Below are positions 1,405 to 15,589 of a stretch of DNA of 24,002 bases, in pieces. This DNA is from a virus. The number at the start of each line of letters is the position of its first letter. Position 1 is the stretch's first letter. Below the pieces are notes generated by a model that saw only the letters and a program-made list of their open reading frames with translations, was not told the DNA's origin and searched no databases. A program made the translations under genes and the position numbers. Where the stretch lies: UHGV virus genome UHGV-0067928, one strand, 5' to 3'.

Positions 1405-3879
1405 CTACATTGCCATTAATATAAACATAGCCAATTCGTCATAACGAATTCCGTAGCGTCCACCTGCTTTTTTTACAAGAATCATATTTCCTGTTTTATA
1501 TTGAGAATAAATTTTCTCACCTGTATCAGGATCTGTGCTCTCTTCAGTTATCACCTCTTCATCCCATACGTCTGGCCATTCATCGTAACACCAAAAAGCA
1601 TATTGCTCAGGATTTAAACCATGCTTTCTAAGAATATCTCCTACGGTTTGAGCACCAACTCCAAAATGATACCTTGATAACTCCAATCCTTTAAAATTAA
1701 TCGACTCATTAAACCTGAACTTGCATATAATTCCCTTTATTTCCAGCGCAGCATCACGCTCTGCCTGAGTAATGTCATATATTGTTTTAAGTGTTTCATC
1801 TGATGTGCTTATAGTCCCGGATGCAGAATAAATCTGAGCCCATCTAAATGATGGTGCACCAAGAGATTTGCTGTTATCAATAATTGGTGAAAAATTACCT
1901 TTAATGGCAATATTTCCAGAGTCGCCGAATATATTAATAACTGCAGAGTCATCACCATGGTTTTTTACGCTTAAGTTTCTTGATGAAATATTTATATCTT
2001 TGTTATATCCACTAACATAAATCCATCTTTTACCATCAATGTGATGCCCGGAAATATTTCCGTTTGATTGTTCGTCAGGTGACTCTCTAAGAACAATAGC
2101 ATCTACTCCAGACGACCATTGTATTTTTGTATCTGTAGGCCTCCAGTTCTTTATAATGAACGAACCATCAGTAAACTCCGTTTTTATTTGTCTATTGTCT
2201 ACAAATGCGTCTCTTGGTTTAAACTCACTTGTGTTAACGCTGCTCTGAAGATCAGAAGCAAAAAATCTAAGATTTCCTGTATAACCCTGAGTCTCGGTCA
2301 GGTTATACGCAATCATAATTCCATTTTCAAACTCAGATGATGTTATTTTAACATCACGGCAATCACCAAAAATGCAATTTCCTTTATCAAATGTTGTTTG
2401 AGCTTTGAATTTATCAAACCTTAAATTACGAACAGGGAAACCATCAACCTCTAATGCAAAGGATGCAGGAAGGCCAAAGTATTCTGATGGCTTACCTGAT
2501 GTATGATCAAGAGTAGTGGCTACTGTATTCTCAAAAACAGTCCCGCTAAAATTATTACCAATTGACGGAAACCTGATTACACTTATTGTACCTTGTATTT
2601 CAGGAGAAATACCAGATAGTGTGATGTTAGTTCCATCAAATGATGCATCTGAATACGTATATACTGATTCACTGCCAGCAATTTTAAACTGTTTAACTGA
2701 AGTTATTCTCATCGACTTTTTATGTTTAAATGTCACTGAGCTTTCAGTATTACTTACAAGATCAATCTGAGGGCTATTCCTTATCGCGATTCCTGACTGG
2801 ACATAAACGTTATTAAAGTGCGTTTTTTCAGGATTTCCCTTCATTGAAAGGCTCCCGTCATTTTCTGTCAGTAGTAGTCCTTTTACCCTCCAATAGCCGA
2901 CAATCTGTACGTTATCAATAACTGAATCACAGCTATCGTATACATGCAACCCTATATCCCAGTTATCACCCAATGAATAAGAATCAGGGTTATTGTATCC
3001 TTCAATACCATTTTTACTTACCATTATTCTCAGATTGCGTAACTGTGATGCCCTGTTGATACTAACAGCTACGCTCATGGCTTTTGGTGTAGCAGGAGTA
3101 ACACCTACAGAATCTTCATTCGTAAACTCAGTGAACTTACAAGATATCCCTTCAACAATTTTAGCTGGTCTTTCATTAGAGATGTTAAAAAAATATTTGT
3201 TTTTTTCTCCATCACCAGTAAATACAAGATGGGTTCCTTTACTCCAACTTTTTAATAATCTTTCAGGCGCTGGTCTATATGTGTCCCAATAATCAATGCC
3301 AGATCCAACCAGTGAACACCCCTCAGGAATGTTAATATTCTTCTTGATGATGCATATTCCTTCAGGAATTGTTATAACCGACCTTCCAGAGTTTAAAGCT
3401 TTAATAAAAGCATCTGAATCATCTGTTACCCCATCTATTTTTGCTCCCCACCCTCTAACATCTCCACAATCTCTCCATCGTGCCATCTGCAACTCAGGAT
3501 ATTTTTTAGCGCCATCTGGATCTTCTAATTGCTGCCGTAGCTGATCGGGGTCATACTTCAGCACATTAGGAAAATAGAACTGCTGCGCACCATACGCATC
3601 GTATACAGCCATAGAATGGCCTTGCACAGTTACGAACTTGGCAATCTGTCCGTTATATACCGGATATCCAGCAGCGTTAATGATGATTGGCTGCGAAACA
3701 GGAACGTGAGAACCGTCTTCATTCTCCACATAAACCTGAATCTGGTTTTCAGGATTTACTGGGTCAGTGTCAATTTTACCGATATAAATTTTGCCATTGG
3801 CTACGGCTTTAAAAGAACGAGCCATAGTGAAGAGTTGAGAAGGCATGCTCACTACAACATTGGCTGTAATGTCTGTCAT
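1405..3879 (-). CDS. Tailspike protein: P22-type head-binding N-domain, beta-helix receptor-binding/depolymerase body, C-terminal S74-like autochaperone domain
   Basis: N-terminus [11 protein letters not shown]...[12 protein letters not shown]...VLKYDPDQ closely follows the P22 gp9 head-binding domain. Repetitive beta-helix-like middle. C-terminal ~130 aa begin [11 protein letters not shown], resembling the intramolecular-chaperone (peptidase S74) domain of endosialidase-type tail fibres. SD GGAG lies 8 nt upstream of the ATG. Confidence 0.9.
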
Positions 3880-11290: not shown

Positions 11291-11746
11291 CTATCTCCCG
11301 TGATTCAGGAAGTCGATTAGTTCTTCGCGTGTGGCGCTGTAAAAAGTCACGTCATCCACGCCTTTAAAGTATTTCTTGATGGTTCCTACACGCTTAAGGC
11401 CAATCATTGCGCAGTACATCTGACCGTGGCGGAATTTGCGTGCAGCGAACGATGTGACGCACTGAACGGTGGTGTTAGTCAGAATGTATCGCCAGAACGC
11501 CAGCCCGATTTCCTTGCTGAAGCCGCGAATCTCTGGCAGGTACATGGCGTGGCAATCGAATGTCAGCGGCTGAATCTCCTGATAGTAAACAATGCCGCCG
11601 AACTGCCCGTGCACGTTCACCTCAAAGTAACGGCATTCAGGTTTGTAGTCGTATCCATCGCCGTTGTTGCTCCCGGCGATAATGTCAGGGTGATTTCCTA
11701 CTGCTTCGATCAGGTCGATGTTTCGCGTTGGTTTGAATGTAATCAT
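11291..11746 (-). CDS. P22 gp14-like protein
   Basis: 151-aa ORF directly downstream of gp26, with start overlapping the gp26 stop (ATGA). Assigned by position only. Confidence 0.55.
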   Translation of the reverse strand: MITFKPTRNIDLIEAVGNHPDIIAGSNNGDGYDYKPECRYFEVNVHGQFGGIVYYQEIQPLTFDCHAMYLPEIRGFSKEIGLAFWRYILTNTTVQCVTSFAARKFRHGQMYCAMIGLKRVGTIKKYFKGVDDVTFYSATREELIDFLNHGR

Positions 11747-12447
11747 CAGTCAATCAGCCCATGTAATCTAAGTGCTGTTTCAAGCGCCAGAATACGCTGC
11801 CGCGCCTGCTGCAAACCTGTAGCGAGAGCCGCGACTTCGGATTGCGTGTACGTAGTGCCGACCGTGTATGACTGGTTAGCGTTGAATGAGCCAAGAAGAG
11901 GTGTACCTGTGGCTGCAGTCCATCCGGTCTGCCTTGCTCCAACGACCTGAATTCCATCAACTGAATATGATGTTTTTACATCCAGCGGTGACGCAAGAGA
12001 CTGCGATTCGGTTACGGTTTTCGATACGTAATCACTCTTAATGTCAGATACATCGCTTTCTACGCCATCCAGTCTTTGGTCAACAGTGACCAGATGCGCC
12101 TGAATATCGATAACCTCATCCAGCAAGTAATCAACATCGCTACGCAGTACGACTATCTTCCCTTCGGCGGTTGTTAACCTGACCTCAAGGAGATTTATCG
12201 CTTTTGTGTTTGCGGTGATTCTTGCATCGTGGTCAGCCAGTTCGACATCCTGTTCATCGTTTTTCACCTGAGCATCGTAAGCGCCCTGACCAGCCTGATT
12301 TGCCTTCCCGGCAATTGCGCCGACATCAGCCCCCTGATTAATGACATACAGCAGGTAAGACTGGCTGAAGATATTGCGTGGAAGGATTGATGTATCGAGT
12401 CGTGTAGCCTGAATTGTTACCGGCTCATTGAGATTCGAATCAGCCAT
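11746..12447 (-). CDS. Tail needle protein, P22 gp26-like
   Basis: [25 protein letters not shown]...[30 protein letters not shown]...[13 protein letters not shown] follows P22 gp26 along its length (233 aa). Start chosen at the ATG at 12447, which has GGAGG 7 nt upstream. Confidence 0.85.
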
Positions 12448-12985
12448 TAACATGCCTCCACGATTTACCAGACTGGATATTGTGAATCACCGTCTGACTG
12501 ACACAGTATTTTTTAGCAAGCTCTCTTTGATTAACTCCCTTTGATTTCTTTATTTCTATTACTTGCTCATATGAGAGCTTTGAAATTGGATTATTTTCTC
12601 CTTTTAAAGCCGGAAACTTCACCCTGCCTTGAGATGAGCAATGCTTCATATTCTCCTTTTGAGTACACCACTCTAAATTAGAAGCATTATTATTTTTTCG
12701 GTTGTTATCTATGTGATTTATGAACGGCTTGCCTTCTGGATTGGGGACGAAAGCAAGAGCGACAAGCCTATGCACAAGCCATTTTACTTTAACTCCATCA
12801 ACACTAAGTGGCAAATATAGATAACCTTTATTATTCTCGTGTTGTTTTAGCCACCGACCCTTTCTGAGTTGCGTGCTGCCATGAGCAGCCTTAACAACAC
12901 GTGAGTGAGAATATACTCGCCCATCCTCTGTTACGGCATATAAACCTTCATATCCAGGAATATCTTTTGCGTTTTCACTCAACAT
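12440..12985 (-). CDS. HNH homing endonuclease (NUMOD4-like N-terminus plus HNH motif)
   Basis: N-terminus [18 protein letters not shown] and HNH core [23 protein letters not shown]; SD AAAGGAG. Lies between gp10 and gp26, which are adjacent in P22. 3' end overlaps the gp26 start. Confidence 0.8.
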
Positions 12986-13005
12986 ATCTACTCCTTTAGT
13001 TTCGA
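12845..13005. repeat. Direct repeat copy A (5' end and leader of HNH gene)
   Basis: About 160 bp that are near-identical to 14815-14985, including an identical ~47-nt run CCTTTCTGAGTTGCGTGCTGCCATGAGCAGCCTTAACAACACGTGAG. Confidence 0.7.
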
Positions 13006-13006
13006 T

Positions 13007-14425
13007 TTATGTTACACGAATAGAAAGGCCTGATAATGTAACAGGACCTTTTGCAATAACTCTGAATTTAAATCCAATGAGGCGTCTAACTCGACCAACT
13101 TTTCGCCATAAAACGCGATTGTCATATACAAATGGTTTTTGTAATACGACCATTTGCTCACGACCGTAATTAATTCCATCTGTAGTTGCTGATATAAATA
13201 TTCTATCTATTCTATCACACACGCCGCCAGATGTTTCTAATTCAAGGTCATTTATTAAAACGTTATCTGCCTTTATTAAAGGAGAATATAAAATATGTTC
13301 CTGTTGCTTGTCGTACTGGCTGCTGATGTCGAATTGCAATTTCCCGGTCACGGACTCCAGCTTATCGCCGCACGTTATCTGATTGCCTTCGTAAATGAAG
13401 TCGATAGCGCGGTACACATCGTCATACAGGCCTGTTTTCAACACACACCATTGCGGACCATTGGCGCTTGAAGATGCGTCGTACACCAGAACATGGCGCG
13501 GAAGATGGATAATCAGCAGCTCATGCGCATCAAATCGCAGCGATTCCATCACGCCATCAGCCAGTTCATCAGCAGTGTAGGAGCGGAGGATTTTCTCAAT
13601 GCTCGCGCTGGCGATTGGTGACACCTGACCTGAGCCGATGATGTATACAGACGGCGCACCTGTTGCCGGATTGCTGATGAACGCATACGAATCAGCGAAT
13701 GGAGTTTTGCAATAAGTCCCAGCAATACCTTTCTGCACCATCAGCGATGGCTGTGCGACATACAAAGCGGCACCAACAGTGGTTGCACCAGTCAGGGAGA
13801 AATATTCAATAGTCGATGAACCAAAGCAGACGATGAAGTCTCGCCATGTCCCGATACCGATGATGCCGTCCGGCTGAGACTCGGCACGATATTGTGCACT
13901 GTAGCGGTCAGGATGCGATTCGTCTTCAAGGTCAGTGATAAACCATGAATCCGTGCCGTCTTTTGACCACGCATAACGCCCACGTAAGCGTGTAATGTCG
14001 CGGACTGAACCTAACTCATACTGAGTGAATCCGCTGTCTGTAGGCCAGTTTGAGACGGTTTTAACCGTGCCATCATAACGATACTCGACCAGTTGACCAT
14101 TAACGCCTACAGCCTGAGATGTCCGACCATGAGCCATTGATACTCGACCACTTCCGGCAACATCACCGACCTCACTTTCGCCCTTATACAGTTTGCCACC
14201 ACACACGCGATAAACAGCATTCTGCGCCATGTTGTACTCGACGCCGCGAGATACACCGTTCACATCAGAGCGTTTGGCAATGCCCGGGAATGAGCGAAGA
14301 TATCCCGATGAATTCAACACCTCCTTGGGCGTAGCTAAAAGATTGACTGGAAGTTGGTCTATATAATCAGCATTAACCGCACTTTTCCCCAATCCCTTCA
14401 TTAGTGGTAGTTGTTGTATTGCCAT
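13007..14425 (-). CDS. Tail hub protein, P22 gp10-like
   Basis: 472 aa, the same length as P22 gp10; N-terminus MAIQQLPLMKGLGK...ADYID..LPVNLLATPKEVLNSSGYLRSFPGIAKR matches the gp10 family. Confidence 0.85.
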   Translation of the reverse strand: MAIQQLPLMKGLGKSAVNADYIDQLPVNLLATPKEVLNSSGYLRSFPGIAKRSDVNGVSRGVEYNMAQNAVYRVCGGKLYKGESEVGDVAGSGRVSMAHGRTSQAVGVNGQLVEYRYDGTVKTVSNWPTDSGFTQYELGSVRDITRLRGRYAWSKDGTDSWFITDLEDESHPDRYSAQYRAESQPDGIIGIGTWRDFIVCFGSSTIEYFSLTGATTVGAALYVAQPSLMVQKGIAGTYCKTPFADSYAFISNPATGAPSVYIIGSGQVSPIASASIEKILRSYTADELADGVMESLRFDAHELLIIHLPRHVLVYDASSSANGPQWCVLKTGLYDDVYRAIDFIYEGNQITCGDKLESVTGKLQFDISSQYDKQQEHILYSPLIKADNVLINDLELETSGGVCDRIDRIFISATTDGINYGREQMVVLQKPFVYDNRVLWRKVGRVRRLIGFKFRVIAKGPVTLSGLSIRVT

Positions 14426-14957
14426 TGGAATCAGCCTTTATATGAACCCAGTTAGCATCACGCTTTAGCCTACTTGCCCAGGTCTTAGATATTCCGTACT
14501 TAGCCGCAATTACTGACAAGCTTTCTTTTGATGACTTGATTGCAAGAACATCGTCATCACTCAACTTGTGCTTTGGGTGCTTGGTTCCGAAAAACTTGAT
14601 TGGTTTCTTTAATCCGGTGGCGTATGCATGTTTGATGTTTTCGCTTTGAGTGCACCACTCAAGATTATTGACGTTATTATTGAGTGGATTGCCATCAATA
14701 TGATTTACCTGAGGCTTGTTTTCAGGATTTGGCAGGAATGTCATTGCAACGATTCGATGGGCAAAAGTCCATTTTGCTCCGATATTATAAAGCACCCTTC
14801 CCTGATTTATTTTAGGCTTTAACCAGCGCCCCTTTCTGAGTTGCGTGCTGCCATGAGCAGCCTTAACAACACGTGAGCGAGAATACACCCTGCCATCTTC
14901 TGTTACGGCATAAACACCTTCAAATCCAGGTATATCTTTAGCATTCTCAGAAAGCAT
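14373..14957 (-). CDS. HNH homing endonuclease (paralog of 12440-12985)
   Basis: First ~47 residues almost identical to the other HNH gene; HNH core NHIDGNPLNNNVNNLEWCTQSEN; SD AAGGAG. Inserted between gp4 and gp10, with its 3' end overlapping the gp10 start by 53 nt. Confidence 0.8.
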   Translation of the reverse strand: MLSENAKDIPGFEGVYAVTEDGRVYSRSRVVKAAHGSTQLRKGRWLKPKINQGRVLYNIGAKWTFAHRIVAMTFLPNPENKPQVNHIDGNPLNNNVNNLEWCTQSENIKHAYATGLKKPIKFFGTKHPKHKLSDDDVLAIKSSKESLSVIAAKYGISKTWASRLKRDANWVHIKADSNGNTTTTTNEGIGEKCG

Positions 14958-14985
14958 ATCTACTCCTTAAAGTTTCGATTTTTCA
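14815..14985. repeat. Direct repeat copy B (5' end and leader of HNH gene)
   Basis: Partner of 12845-13005. Confidence 0.7.
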
Positions 14986-14993
14986 TGTACTTA

Positions 14994-15098
14994 TTATATC
15001 AAAATTGCCAGCATATTCACTGGCAGATAGTCGATATAGTCGGCGTTTCGAAAGTCTTTGCCGACACCTTTCATAAGCGGAAGTTGCTGAATAGGCAT
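14994..15098 (-). pseudogene. Relic 5' end of gp10 (34 codons) stranded upstream of the HNH insertion
   Basis: Translates to MPIQQLPLMKGVGKDFRNADYIDYLPVNMLAILI-stop, with its own SD AGGTGA, 8 nt after the gp4 stop. Homologous to the N-terminus of the intact gp10 at 14425. Confidence 0.6.
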
Positions 15099-15106
15099 TT
15101 ATTCAC

Positions 15107-15589
15107 CTATGCGTTTGGGATATCGCCATCAATCAGAGGGAGATCGCCTGGATAATATCGGTCAGATGTGAACACGTCATATTTATTACCCTGTCCTACA
15201 GGAAAATCTCCACGTCGTCGTATTGAAGGAACAACCAGAGTGTCGGTAATCAAGGCATCATATGAGCGTTGGGCGTTACTGAGAACTTGCTGAGTTGGTT
15301 CAAGGCTGTAATCAGATAGCATTCTCAGCAATAACTGATAGCCTACTGCGTGTTTGTATTTTCTTGGAAGACCTGACTCATCATCTGGTAATGGCTGATC
15401 ATCTCCAGTTGCGAAAGCGTAACCAATGTCGCCGGGGTTAATCATCCACTCGGACATCATATCTTCCAGATCATTTACACCATCTTCAATTGATTGCGGC
15501 TCAACATCAGTCAGCGATGCGTTAGAAGCAATAGCAAACTTACGAAGCGCAAAAAGGACGATCTCACCCTTTGTCAGTACTGTTGCCAT
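15107..15589 (-). CDS. Head completion / tail adaptor protein, P22 gp4-like
   Basis: ALRKFAIASNASLTDVEPQSIEDGVNDLEDMMSEW matches the P22 gp4 N-terminal pattern; 160 aa. Confidence 0.85.
   Translation of the reverse strand: MATVLTKGEIVLFALRKFAIASNASLTDVEPQSIEDGVNDLEDMMSEWMINPGDIGYAFATGDDQPLPDDESGLPRKYKHAVGYQLLLRMLSDYSLEPTQQVLSNAQRSYDALITDTLVVPSIRRRGDFPVGQGNKYDVFTSDRYYPGDLPLIDGDIPNA

Follow-up and report, generated by a model that had tools for sequence, protein, structure and literature searches.

The window considered here, the whole 24,002-nucleotide (nt) stretch of the virus genome UHGV-0067928, carries on its minus strand the genes gp4, gp10 and gp26 of a P22-like phage, in the order gp4, a 34-codon gp10 stub, the HNH endonuclease gene HNH-1, a full-length gp10, a second HNH endonuclease gene, HNH-2, and gp26 (Table 1). 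In P22 and HK620 gp4, gp10 and gp26 are contiguous, with no insert, as an earlier sequence-only reading of the window had stated for P22 when it placed an HNH gene on each side of gp10 here; all the features that it described lie where it put them, on the minus strand. The locus was compared with about 50 related loci and 5,426 complete Escherichia coli genomes, the comparison set including HK620, P22, HZ41, UPF_BP1, 683R2, several E. coli prophages and 52 IMG/VR contigs retrieved with HNH-1. Relative to HK620, gp4 and the stub are 98.9% identical, and the functional gp10 is a three-part mosaic, with 62% identity over nt 1-120, 94% over nt 121-1100 and 62% over nt 1101-1419. Our proposal is that two free-standing cassettes, independent of each other and each made of an I-HmuI-type homing endonuclease gene (HEG) and a diverged replacement of the adjacent end of gp10, are present in the window and have probably spread by homing.

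The HNH-1 cassette consists of a 49-nt leader with a Shine-Dalgarno (SD) sequence, 532 nt of the HNH-1 gene and a foreign gp10 segment of 120 nt, and it lies inside gp10, after nt 92, where it replaces nt 93-120 of the canonical gene. Since all gp10 genes compared are 1,419 nt long, association with HNH-1 could be computed site by site without alignment uncertainty: 33 sites within gp10 nt 4-120 are completely associated with HNH-1, and r2 averages about 0.04 from nt 121 on. When the variant consensus is set against the canonical one, about 39 of the first 120 positions differ and none does from nt 121, and the seven bases that precede this border (nt 114-120) all differ, with two serine codons changed from AGC to TCN. 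All 30 HNH-1-positive loci (24 distinct sequences) have the identical junction, the stub, the 194-codon HNH-1 and the variant gp10 nt 1-120, so that their gp10 N-terminus reads MAIQQLPLMKGLGKSAVNADYIDQLPVNLL... instead of the canonical MPIQQLPLMKGVGKDFRNADYIDYLPVNML...; the 120-nt variant segment is 100% identical between the window and the Salmonella phage UPF_BP1. The cassette thus supplies a new ribosome-binding site, a new start codon and the first 40 codons of gp10, which stays intact. Canonical gp10 nt 93-120, from which the replacement copy differs at about half of the 28 positions, is the only canonical sequence missing from HNH-1-positive genomes. The earlier reading had the endonuclease arriving with a co-converted gp10 5' segment: the diverged segment did come with HNH-1 and the stub is the native start, but in place of a variable co-conversion tract there is a fixed length of 120 nt with a razor-sharp border. 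Nor would ordinary homing and co-conversion, of which the locus had been called a clear footprint, have left a relic.

The last 53 nt of HNH-1 overlap the start of gp10 in a different reading frame. The last 17 codons (...NGNTTTTTNEGIGEKCG, window 14373-14425), which are read from the gp10 start region, reach past the end of the alignment with HNH-2, so that this tail is probably a by-product of the fusion. In the RefSeq record of UPF_BP1 (NC_047875) the gp10 coding sequence is 108 nt short, being annotated at 2213-3523 of the retrieved locus where the full gene spans 2213-3631, apparently because the true start overlaps the HNH gene.

The stub is the native start of gp10, stranded upstream of the cassette. 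It begins 8 nt past the gp4 stop codon, as had been noted before, with GGTGA just upstream; bases 15007-15098 correspond to canonical gp10 nt 1-92, and the final stub codons (ILI, then two stops) are cassette sequence, giving the same end, ...NMLA-ILI-stop, in all 30 loci. Over these 92 positions the stub matches HK620 gp10 at 91 and P22 gp10 at 76, and the functional gp10 of the window matches them at 59 and 63, respectively, which bears out the earlier impression that the stub is closer to P22 gp10 than the functional copy is. The stub of UPF_BP1 matches P22 at 92/92 and HK620 at 75/92. Minor stub alleles also occur among live canonical gp10 starts in 20 of 26 cases (sample of 19). Being as polymorphic as the live gp10 starts and matched to its own lineage, the stub is recipient-type sequence and not a single decaying fossil, as would be expected if it served as a left homology arm or if it were still recombining with canonical phages. 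RefSeq labels it a partial gp10 pseudogene in E. coli prophages. A stem-loop spans the junction between stub and cassette (-16 kcal/mol, z -4.6, with none of 200 shuffled sequences as stable); it is followed by a T-rich run and was flagged as terminator-like. The inner stem is formed by an inverted repeat that belongs to gp10 itself (nt 76-92), and in the outer stem nt 61-68 of gp10 pair with the cassette's first bases. The structure could attenuate the expression of HNH-1, or it could be a mark left by the illegitimate join at the founding of the cassette. A promoter scan gave promoter-like matches no commoner than in shuffled sequence.

A mirror pattern, absent from the earlier reading, is found at the other end of gp10, where HNH-2 and a diverged 3' end, about 320 nt long, are in strict linkage. 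In every case HNH-2, or an alternative allele of it that we call HNH-2', occurs with this diverged end: 71 sites between nt 1132 and nt 1416 are fully associated, the association being complete from nt 1132 (window 13294) and graded from about nt 1100, and the C-terminus of the protein reads ...RLIGFKFRVIAKGPVTLSGLSIRVT instead of the canonical ...KNVGFKLRVITKSPVTLSGCQIRIE. The second cassette is composed of this diverged gp10 end, a spacer of 21 nt with an SD sequence (12986-13006) and HNH-2, whose stop codon overlaps codons 2-3 of gp26, and it ends exactly at the start of gp26; no native relic remains on this side. The homologous start of gp26 is at 12447, the listed start of its open reading frame (ORF), 12453, being an in-frame ATG further upstream. 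HNH-2' (177 amino acids; 1621-2154 and 1008-1541 in two retrieved loci) is preceded by the same gp10 variant and spacer as HNH-2 and agrees with it over the first ~30 and last ~20 nt, but not in the middle. In phage 683R2 and one of the IMG/VR contigs the gp10/gp26 junction is taken up by a third, unrelated endonuclease gene, with HNH_3 and AP2 domains. Since at least three endonuclease genes have used it, this junction is a hot spot for such genes. In 683R2 the HNH_3 and AP2 gene (1648-2142 of the retrieved locus) is annotated as 'endolysin', and in the IMG/VR contig (L028) it co-occurs with HNH-1. A prophage of E. coli M160133 has an IS1 element within the gp10/HNH-2 region.

Table 1. Features of the gp4-gp26 region, in window coordinates.
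Feature	Position	Strand	Basis or remark
gp4 (head-tail adaptor)	15107-15589	-	Pfam P22_Tail-4, E 1e-73
gp10 stub ORF, 34 codons	14994-15098	-	Pfam Phage_stabilise positions 1-28, E 7e-11
Stem-loop across stub/cassette junction	14995-15038	-	RNA fold
HNH-1 cassette, 701 bp	14306-15006	-	Border, association and diversity data
HNH-1 ORF, 194 amino acids, NUMOD4 and HNH_3	14373-14957	-	Pfam; I-HmuI 1U3E, E 1e-8
Shared HNH leader and 5' coding segment, copy 1	14818-14981	-	86% identical to 12846-13008
Functional gp10, 472 amino acids	13007-14425	-	Pfam Phage_stabilise, E 1e-281
Diverged gp10 3' segment (nt ~1101-1419)	13007-13325	-	Linked to HNH-2/HNH-2'
Shared HNH leader and 5' coding segment, copy 2	12846-13008	-	86% identical to 14818-14981
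HNH-2 ORF, 181 amino acids, NUMOD4, HNH_3 and weak C-terminal helix-turn-helix (HTH)-like	12440-12985	-	Pfam; I-HmuI, E 2e-12
gp26 tail needle, right boundary of the HNH-2 insertion	11746-12447	-	HK620 gp26 homology resumes at 12449

By domain content and homology, HNH-1 and HNH-2 belong to the I-HmuI-like HNH endonucleases. Both score well above the Pfam cut-offs for HNH_3 (41.5 and 40.8 bits, respectively; cut-off 24.8) and NUMOD4 (33.7 and 44.1 bits; cut-off 23.4), and their sole significant relative of solved structure is the homing endonuclease I-HmuI (1U3E). The H...N...N motif of HNH-1, 'NHIDGN...NNLEWCTQSEN', aligns with 'DHKDGN...TNLRWVTQKIN' of 1U3E, and the 'NHIDNN...' of HNH-2 likewise aligns with its catalytic motif. 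The two genes are free-standing, as separate ORFs each with its own SD sequence, and no match to a group I or group II intron was found with Rfam in the region. They had been recognized as paralogs, in agreement with the 54% identity of their proteins over the full length (E 1e-58). The shared 5' segment followed by divergence is also real, but 'near-identical' overstates a nucleotide identity of 85-86%: of 141 coding nt 120 are the same, at most 48 nt match without interruption, 17 codons differ, 14 of them synonymously, and the similarity includes about 25 nt of upstream leader with the SD sequence. Recent intragenomic gene conversion between the 5' ends was considered and rejected, because genomes with a single HEG show the same 86% identity. 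A further paralog of 172 amino acids, about 47% identical to HNH-1, lies at a different locus in other P22-like genomes (six retrieved loci; phage N7, 35994-36506; ST-35), and the family therefore occupies several sites in the P22-like group.

The population data show both cassettes as rare and sporadic. A P22-like gp4-gp10-gp26 region is present in 926 of the 5,426 E. coli genomes, and by far the most frequent state among these is the one with no HEG. HNH-1 was found in 18 genomes (22 places) and the variant gp10 5' segment in the same number at full length, plus one partial copy; HNH-2 was found in 16, HNH-2', the commoner allele in E. coli, in 36, and the variant 3' segment in 52, the sum of the last two counts, so that the linkage to HNH-2/2' is complete at this scale. 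HNH-2 occurs alone in HZ41 and E. coli MB53, and HNH-1 alone in UPF_BP1 and Res13. The HNH genes were inserted, as originally supposed, into a gp4-gp10-gp26 block that is otherwise uninterrupted, and the arrangement of the window is not a universal one (18 of 926 for HNH-1).

Several lines of evidence suggest that the HNH-1 cassette is young and mobile. The three parts of the cassette have a nucleotide diversity (pi) of 0.005-0.006 among HNH-1-positive loci, against 0.043 in the stub and 0.064 in gp10 from nt 121 on; this trough, about ten times below the flanks, implies a rapid recent spread, and the same cassette lies behind at least five gp4 types and ahead of several gp26 types. The endonuclease genes are under purifying selection, with ratios of nonsynonymous to synonymous polymorphism (pN/pS) of 0.10 for HNH-1 (15 distinct alleles), 0.07 for HNH-2 and 0.00 for HNH-2'. 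Loss and decay are found as well. In E. coli AVS0578 gp4 is followed directly by gp10 (2450-3868 of the retrieved locus), with no HNH gene, and the gp10 start is chimeric, canonical over nt 1-57 and variant over nt 60-120. This allele is most simply read as the product of recombination between stub and functional start that deleted HNH-1, although a conversion tract that left out the endonuclease gene would give the same product. The direct repeats formed by the two HNH 5' segments had been proposed as substrates for deleting gp10, of which we found no evidence, the recombination seen being that of AVS0578. A 1-nt difference breaks HNH-1 into two ORFs in E. coli ES5 (1144-1727 of the retrieved locus). 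Finally, HNH-1 is present twice in the chromosome of E. coli STEC308, in a complete P22-like element and in a degraded one: the two 701-bp cassettes are 100% identical, identity extends to gp10 nt 227, and nt 228-1419 differ by about 5%, a pattern that fits intracellular conversion. E. coli ET729 also has two HNH-1 copies, the second of which was not located.

From the anatomy of the locus we infer active enzymes, specific target sites and a transfer driven by the endonuclease, as opposed to passive recombination. Homing would take place where a HEG-less P22-like genome is present in the same cell, by co-infection or as a resident prophage. Each enzyme would nick or cut the canonical gp10 allele near its own insertion point, and recombinational repair off the HEG-positive genome would copy the cassette. 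Because gp10 nt 93-120 is the sole canonical sequence absent from HNH-1-positive genomes, the recognition or cleavage site of HNH-1 is predicted at about gp10 nt 93-120. The homology arms would be the stub and gp4 on the left and gp10 from nt 121 onward on the right, a model from which it follows that the stub carries the polymorphisms of the recipient and that linkage stops abruptly at both borders of the cassette. By removing the targets of the enzymes from their own genome, the diverged gp10 ends would confer immunity to self-cleavage. As the right junction of the first cassette is in register (nt 120/121) and the left one (after nt 92) is not, the founding insertion must have used homology at its right end and an illegitimate join at its left. 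It was probably a break repair that copied from a distant donor; later spread could use homology on both sides.

A number of observations weigh against homing as the driving force. Prevalence is about 2% for HNH-1 and about 5% for HNH-2/2', not what a strong drive predicts, although temperate phages may rarely meet. The right border of HNH-1 is sharp, with no co-conversion gradient, and a tract past the cassette (~107 nt) is found only in STEC308, where the two elements have identical gp4 and gp26 genes too, so that relatedness could explain part of the identity. The ES5 frameshift could be a sequencing error. Furthermore, a donor lineage for the diverged gp10 ends was not found. In a blastn search of 50,697 phage records the 5' variant occurred in UPF_BP1 only, and the 3' variant, at 99.7%, only in the HNH-2 carrier HZ41, with one further match at 90-95% and the rest being canonical alleles at about 67%; among GTDB genomes, one per species, nothing exceeded 70% amino-acid identity to the variant gp10 C-terminus; and a search of 5.8 billion proteins returned mainly fragments. 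A candidate donor with a 78% match (P0003) was rejected, as it is a frameshift-ridden metagenome copy of the HNH-2 arrangement itself (94.6% nt identity, 13 gaps).

Ordinary homologous recombination in these mosaic phages could also shift a young cassette across backgrounds. Under this passive alternative each HNH gene would have been inserted once together with a foreign gp10 end and then carried along by recombination, without the endonuclease driving its spread. It is consistent with the strong mosaicism of P22-like genomes (the best phage match covers 50% of the window), with the variety of gp4 types (five) and gp26 types around the same cassette, with the low prevalence and with the missing gradient at the right border of HNH-1. 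We nevertheless regard it as rather unlikely. It does not readily account for the diversity trough, for the maintenance of the proteins at a pN/pS of about 0.1, or for the presence in both co-resident elements of STEC308 of a cassette whose frequency in the population is about 2%. Besides, across the 5,426 genomes the diverged gp10 ends are never found apart from the HEGs, except for one chimeric allele, as would be expected if separation were lethal through self-cleavage.

The purifying selection and the predicted targets in an essential virion gene are also in keeping with HNH genes that are kept because they harm competing P22-like phages or superinfecting relatives, the copying of the cassette being a by-product. 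A precedent is the intron-encoded HNH endonuclease of phage PhiPA3, which is reported to cut a co-infecting phage and so to give a competitive advantage (PMC11620839). The low prevalence speaks against a large benefit, and we consider such a role improbable as the primary explanation; it is compatible with selfish homing, from which the present observations do not separate it.

It could also be argued that both HEGs and gp10 travel as a single composite mobile unit, with gp10 as its cargo, since two HEGs bracketing an essential gene is the arrangement described for HEG-islands (PMC10448857), and since the equal distance of both gp10 ends from the canonical gene (~62%) and the recombined 5' module shared by the HEGs hint at a common past in one donor. 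However, the cassettes segregate independently: the gp10/gp26 junction is free of HEGs in 24 of 30 HNH-1-positive loci, and HNH-1 is missing from 16 of 21 loci with HNH-2/2'. HNH-1 and HNH-2' occur together in two E. coli genomes, near the chance expectation of about one, and the exact pair HNH-1 and HNH-2 was found in this window only. The central 980 nt of gp10 are not associated with either HEG (r2 ~0.03-0.05). Because of this independence and the unlinked centre, the bracketing of gp10 here is a coincidence of two rare, separate elements; a present-day HEG-island is already contradicted by these distributions and must be considered very unlikely. That stub and functional gp10 are the exons of a gene split by an intron or intein, or that the duplication is an assembly artefact, is scarcely credible: a splice that joined nt 92 of the stub to nt 93 of the functional gp10 would keep the frame, but no intron family matches, the functional gp10 has an ATG of its own and an N-terminus that is conserved in spite of a nucleotide divergence of 36%, and the same structure recurs in more than 30 independent records, complete genomes included.

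A wider interpretation can tentatively be offered, one that we think possible but would not favour over its negation. HNH-1 may represent a third way, besides introns and inteins, for a HEG to reside inside an essential phage coding sequence: a discrete cassette that replaces a gene end and recodes the gene start, with the stranded native start as an obligatory left arm that is refreshed in each recipient and with a junction stem-loop that may control expression. Both diverged gp10 ends might, in addition, be the last remnants of one unsampled donor gp10 once bracketed by both HEGs, that is, of an ancestral HEG-island since dismantled by recombination.

Free-standing homing endonucleases are thought to shape phage mosaicism, and their entry into coding regions and the borders of what they carry are rarely clear. 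This locus offers a natural series in a group of tractable phages (P22, Sf6, HK620), with the empty site, each cassette alone, both together, alternative endonucleases at a single site, a decayed copy and an apparent excision footprint, and it yields a precise and testable target prediction, canonical gp10 nt ~93-120. It also accounts for a recurrent 'partial gp10' pseudogene in E. coli prophages and for a mis-called gp10 start in a RefSeq phage record. RefSeq already labels parts of the arrangement ('HNH endonuclease', partial gp10 pseudogene). The searchable literature gave no account of HNH genes beside gp10 in P22-like phages, only of unrelated HNH insertions (epsilon34 gene 31; SEN22, between terminase and portal), and no earlier case in a phage of a HEG that leaves a gene start stranded.

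Among known systems, the closest in protein family is that of I-HmuI and I-HmuII of the Bacillus phages SPO1 and SP82 (PDB 1U3E), which share with HNH-1 and HNH-2 a NUMOD4-type N-terminus, the HNH_3 motif and a C-terminal HTH-like tail. I-HmuI is a strand-specific nickase. Like the genes described here, it is phage-encoded and adjoins or lies inside an essential gene; unlike them, it lies in a group I intron of a DNA polymerase gene, whereas HNH-1 and HNH-2 are intron-free, and the sequence identity is low. The Seg and Mob endonucleases of T4-like phages (SegF, SegG, MobE) are, as HNH-1 and HNH-2, free-standing and located between or beside essential genes, where they cause marker exclusion and co-conversion; they cleave the HEG-less allele of a neighbouring gene, the HEG-positive genome being protected by sequence polymorphism. 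However, Seg enzymes belong to the GIY-YIG family and T4-like phages are lytic. Homing in T4 involves long and variable co-conversion tracts, and we know of no T4 system with a stranded duplicate of the start of the target gene.

The HEG-islands of ICP1-like and other phages (Barth, Dunham & Seed 2023, PMC10448857) resemble the present locus in that HEGs bracket an essential structural gene, in that different HEGs occupy cognate positions (here HNH-2, HNH-2' and the HNH_3 and AP2 gene at gp10/gp26) and in that domains are shuffled between HEGs. They differ in that here the cargo is not co-inherited with the HEGs and the cassettes are independent, and they are described as having no discrete borders, whereas those of the HNH-1 cassette are discrete.

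By its architecture, the closest precedent is the hybrid genes made by the mobile endonuclease ORFs (mORFs) of fungal mitochondria, such as atp6 in Allomyces and atp6, atp9, cox2 and nad3 in Glomus (Beaudet et al. 2013, PMC3630166), alongside which partial duplications of fungal mitochondrial atp6 and cob have been described (PMC6279837). There too an endonuclease gene comes with a foreign end of the host gene and the native end is left as a duplicate, and the identities to relatives of the native (91-98%) and inserted (64-81%) pieces match those of the stub (99%) and of the functional gp10 start (64%). The arrangement in HNH-1 is mirrored, since it is the 5' end that is replaced and the relic is found upstream; nor is the HEG fused to the host gene in frame. 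The enzymes are of the LAGLIDADG or GIY-YIG families in fungi and of the HNH family in a temperate phage here; HNH-2 shares with mORFs the foreign 3' end but lacks the native relic. With these differences, the combination of a foreign gene end and a native relic known from fungal mitochondria also occurs in temperate phages.

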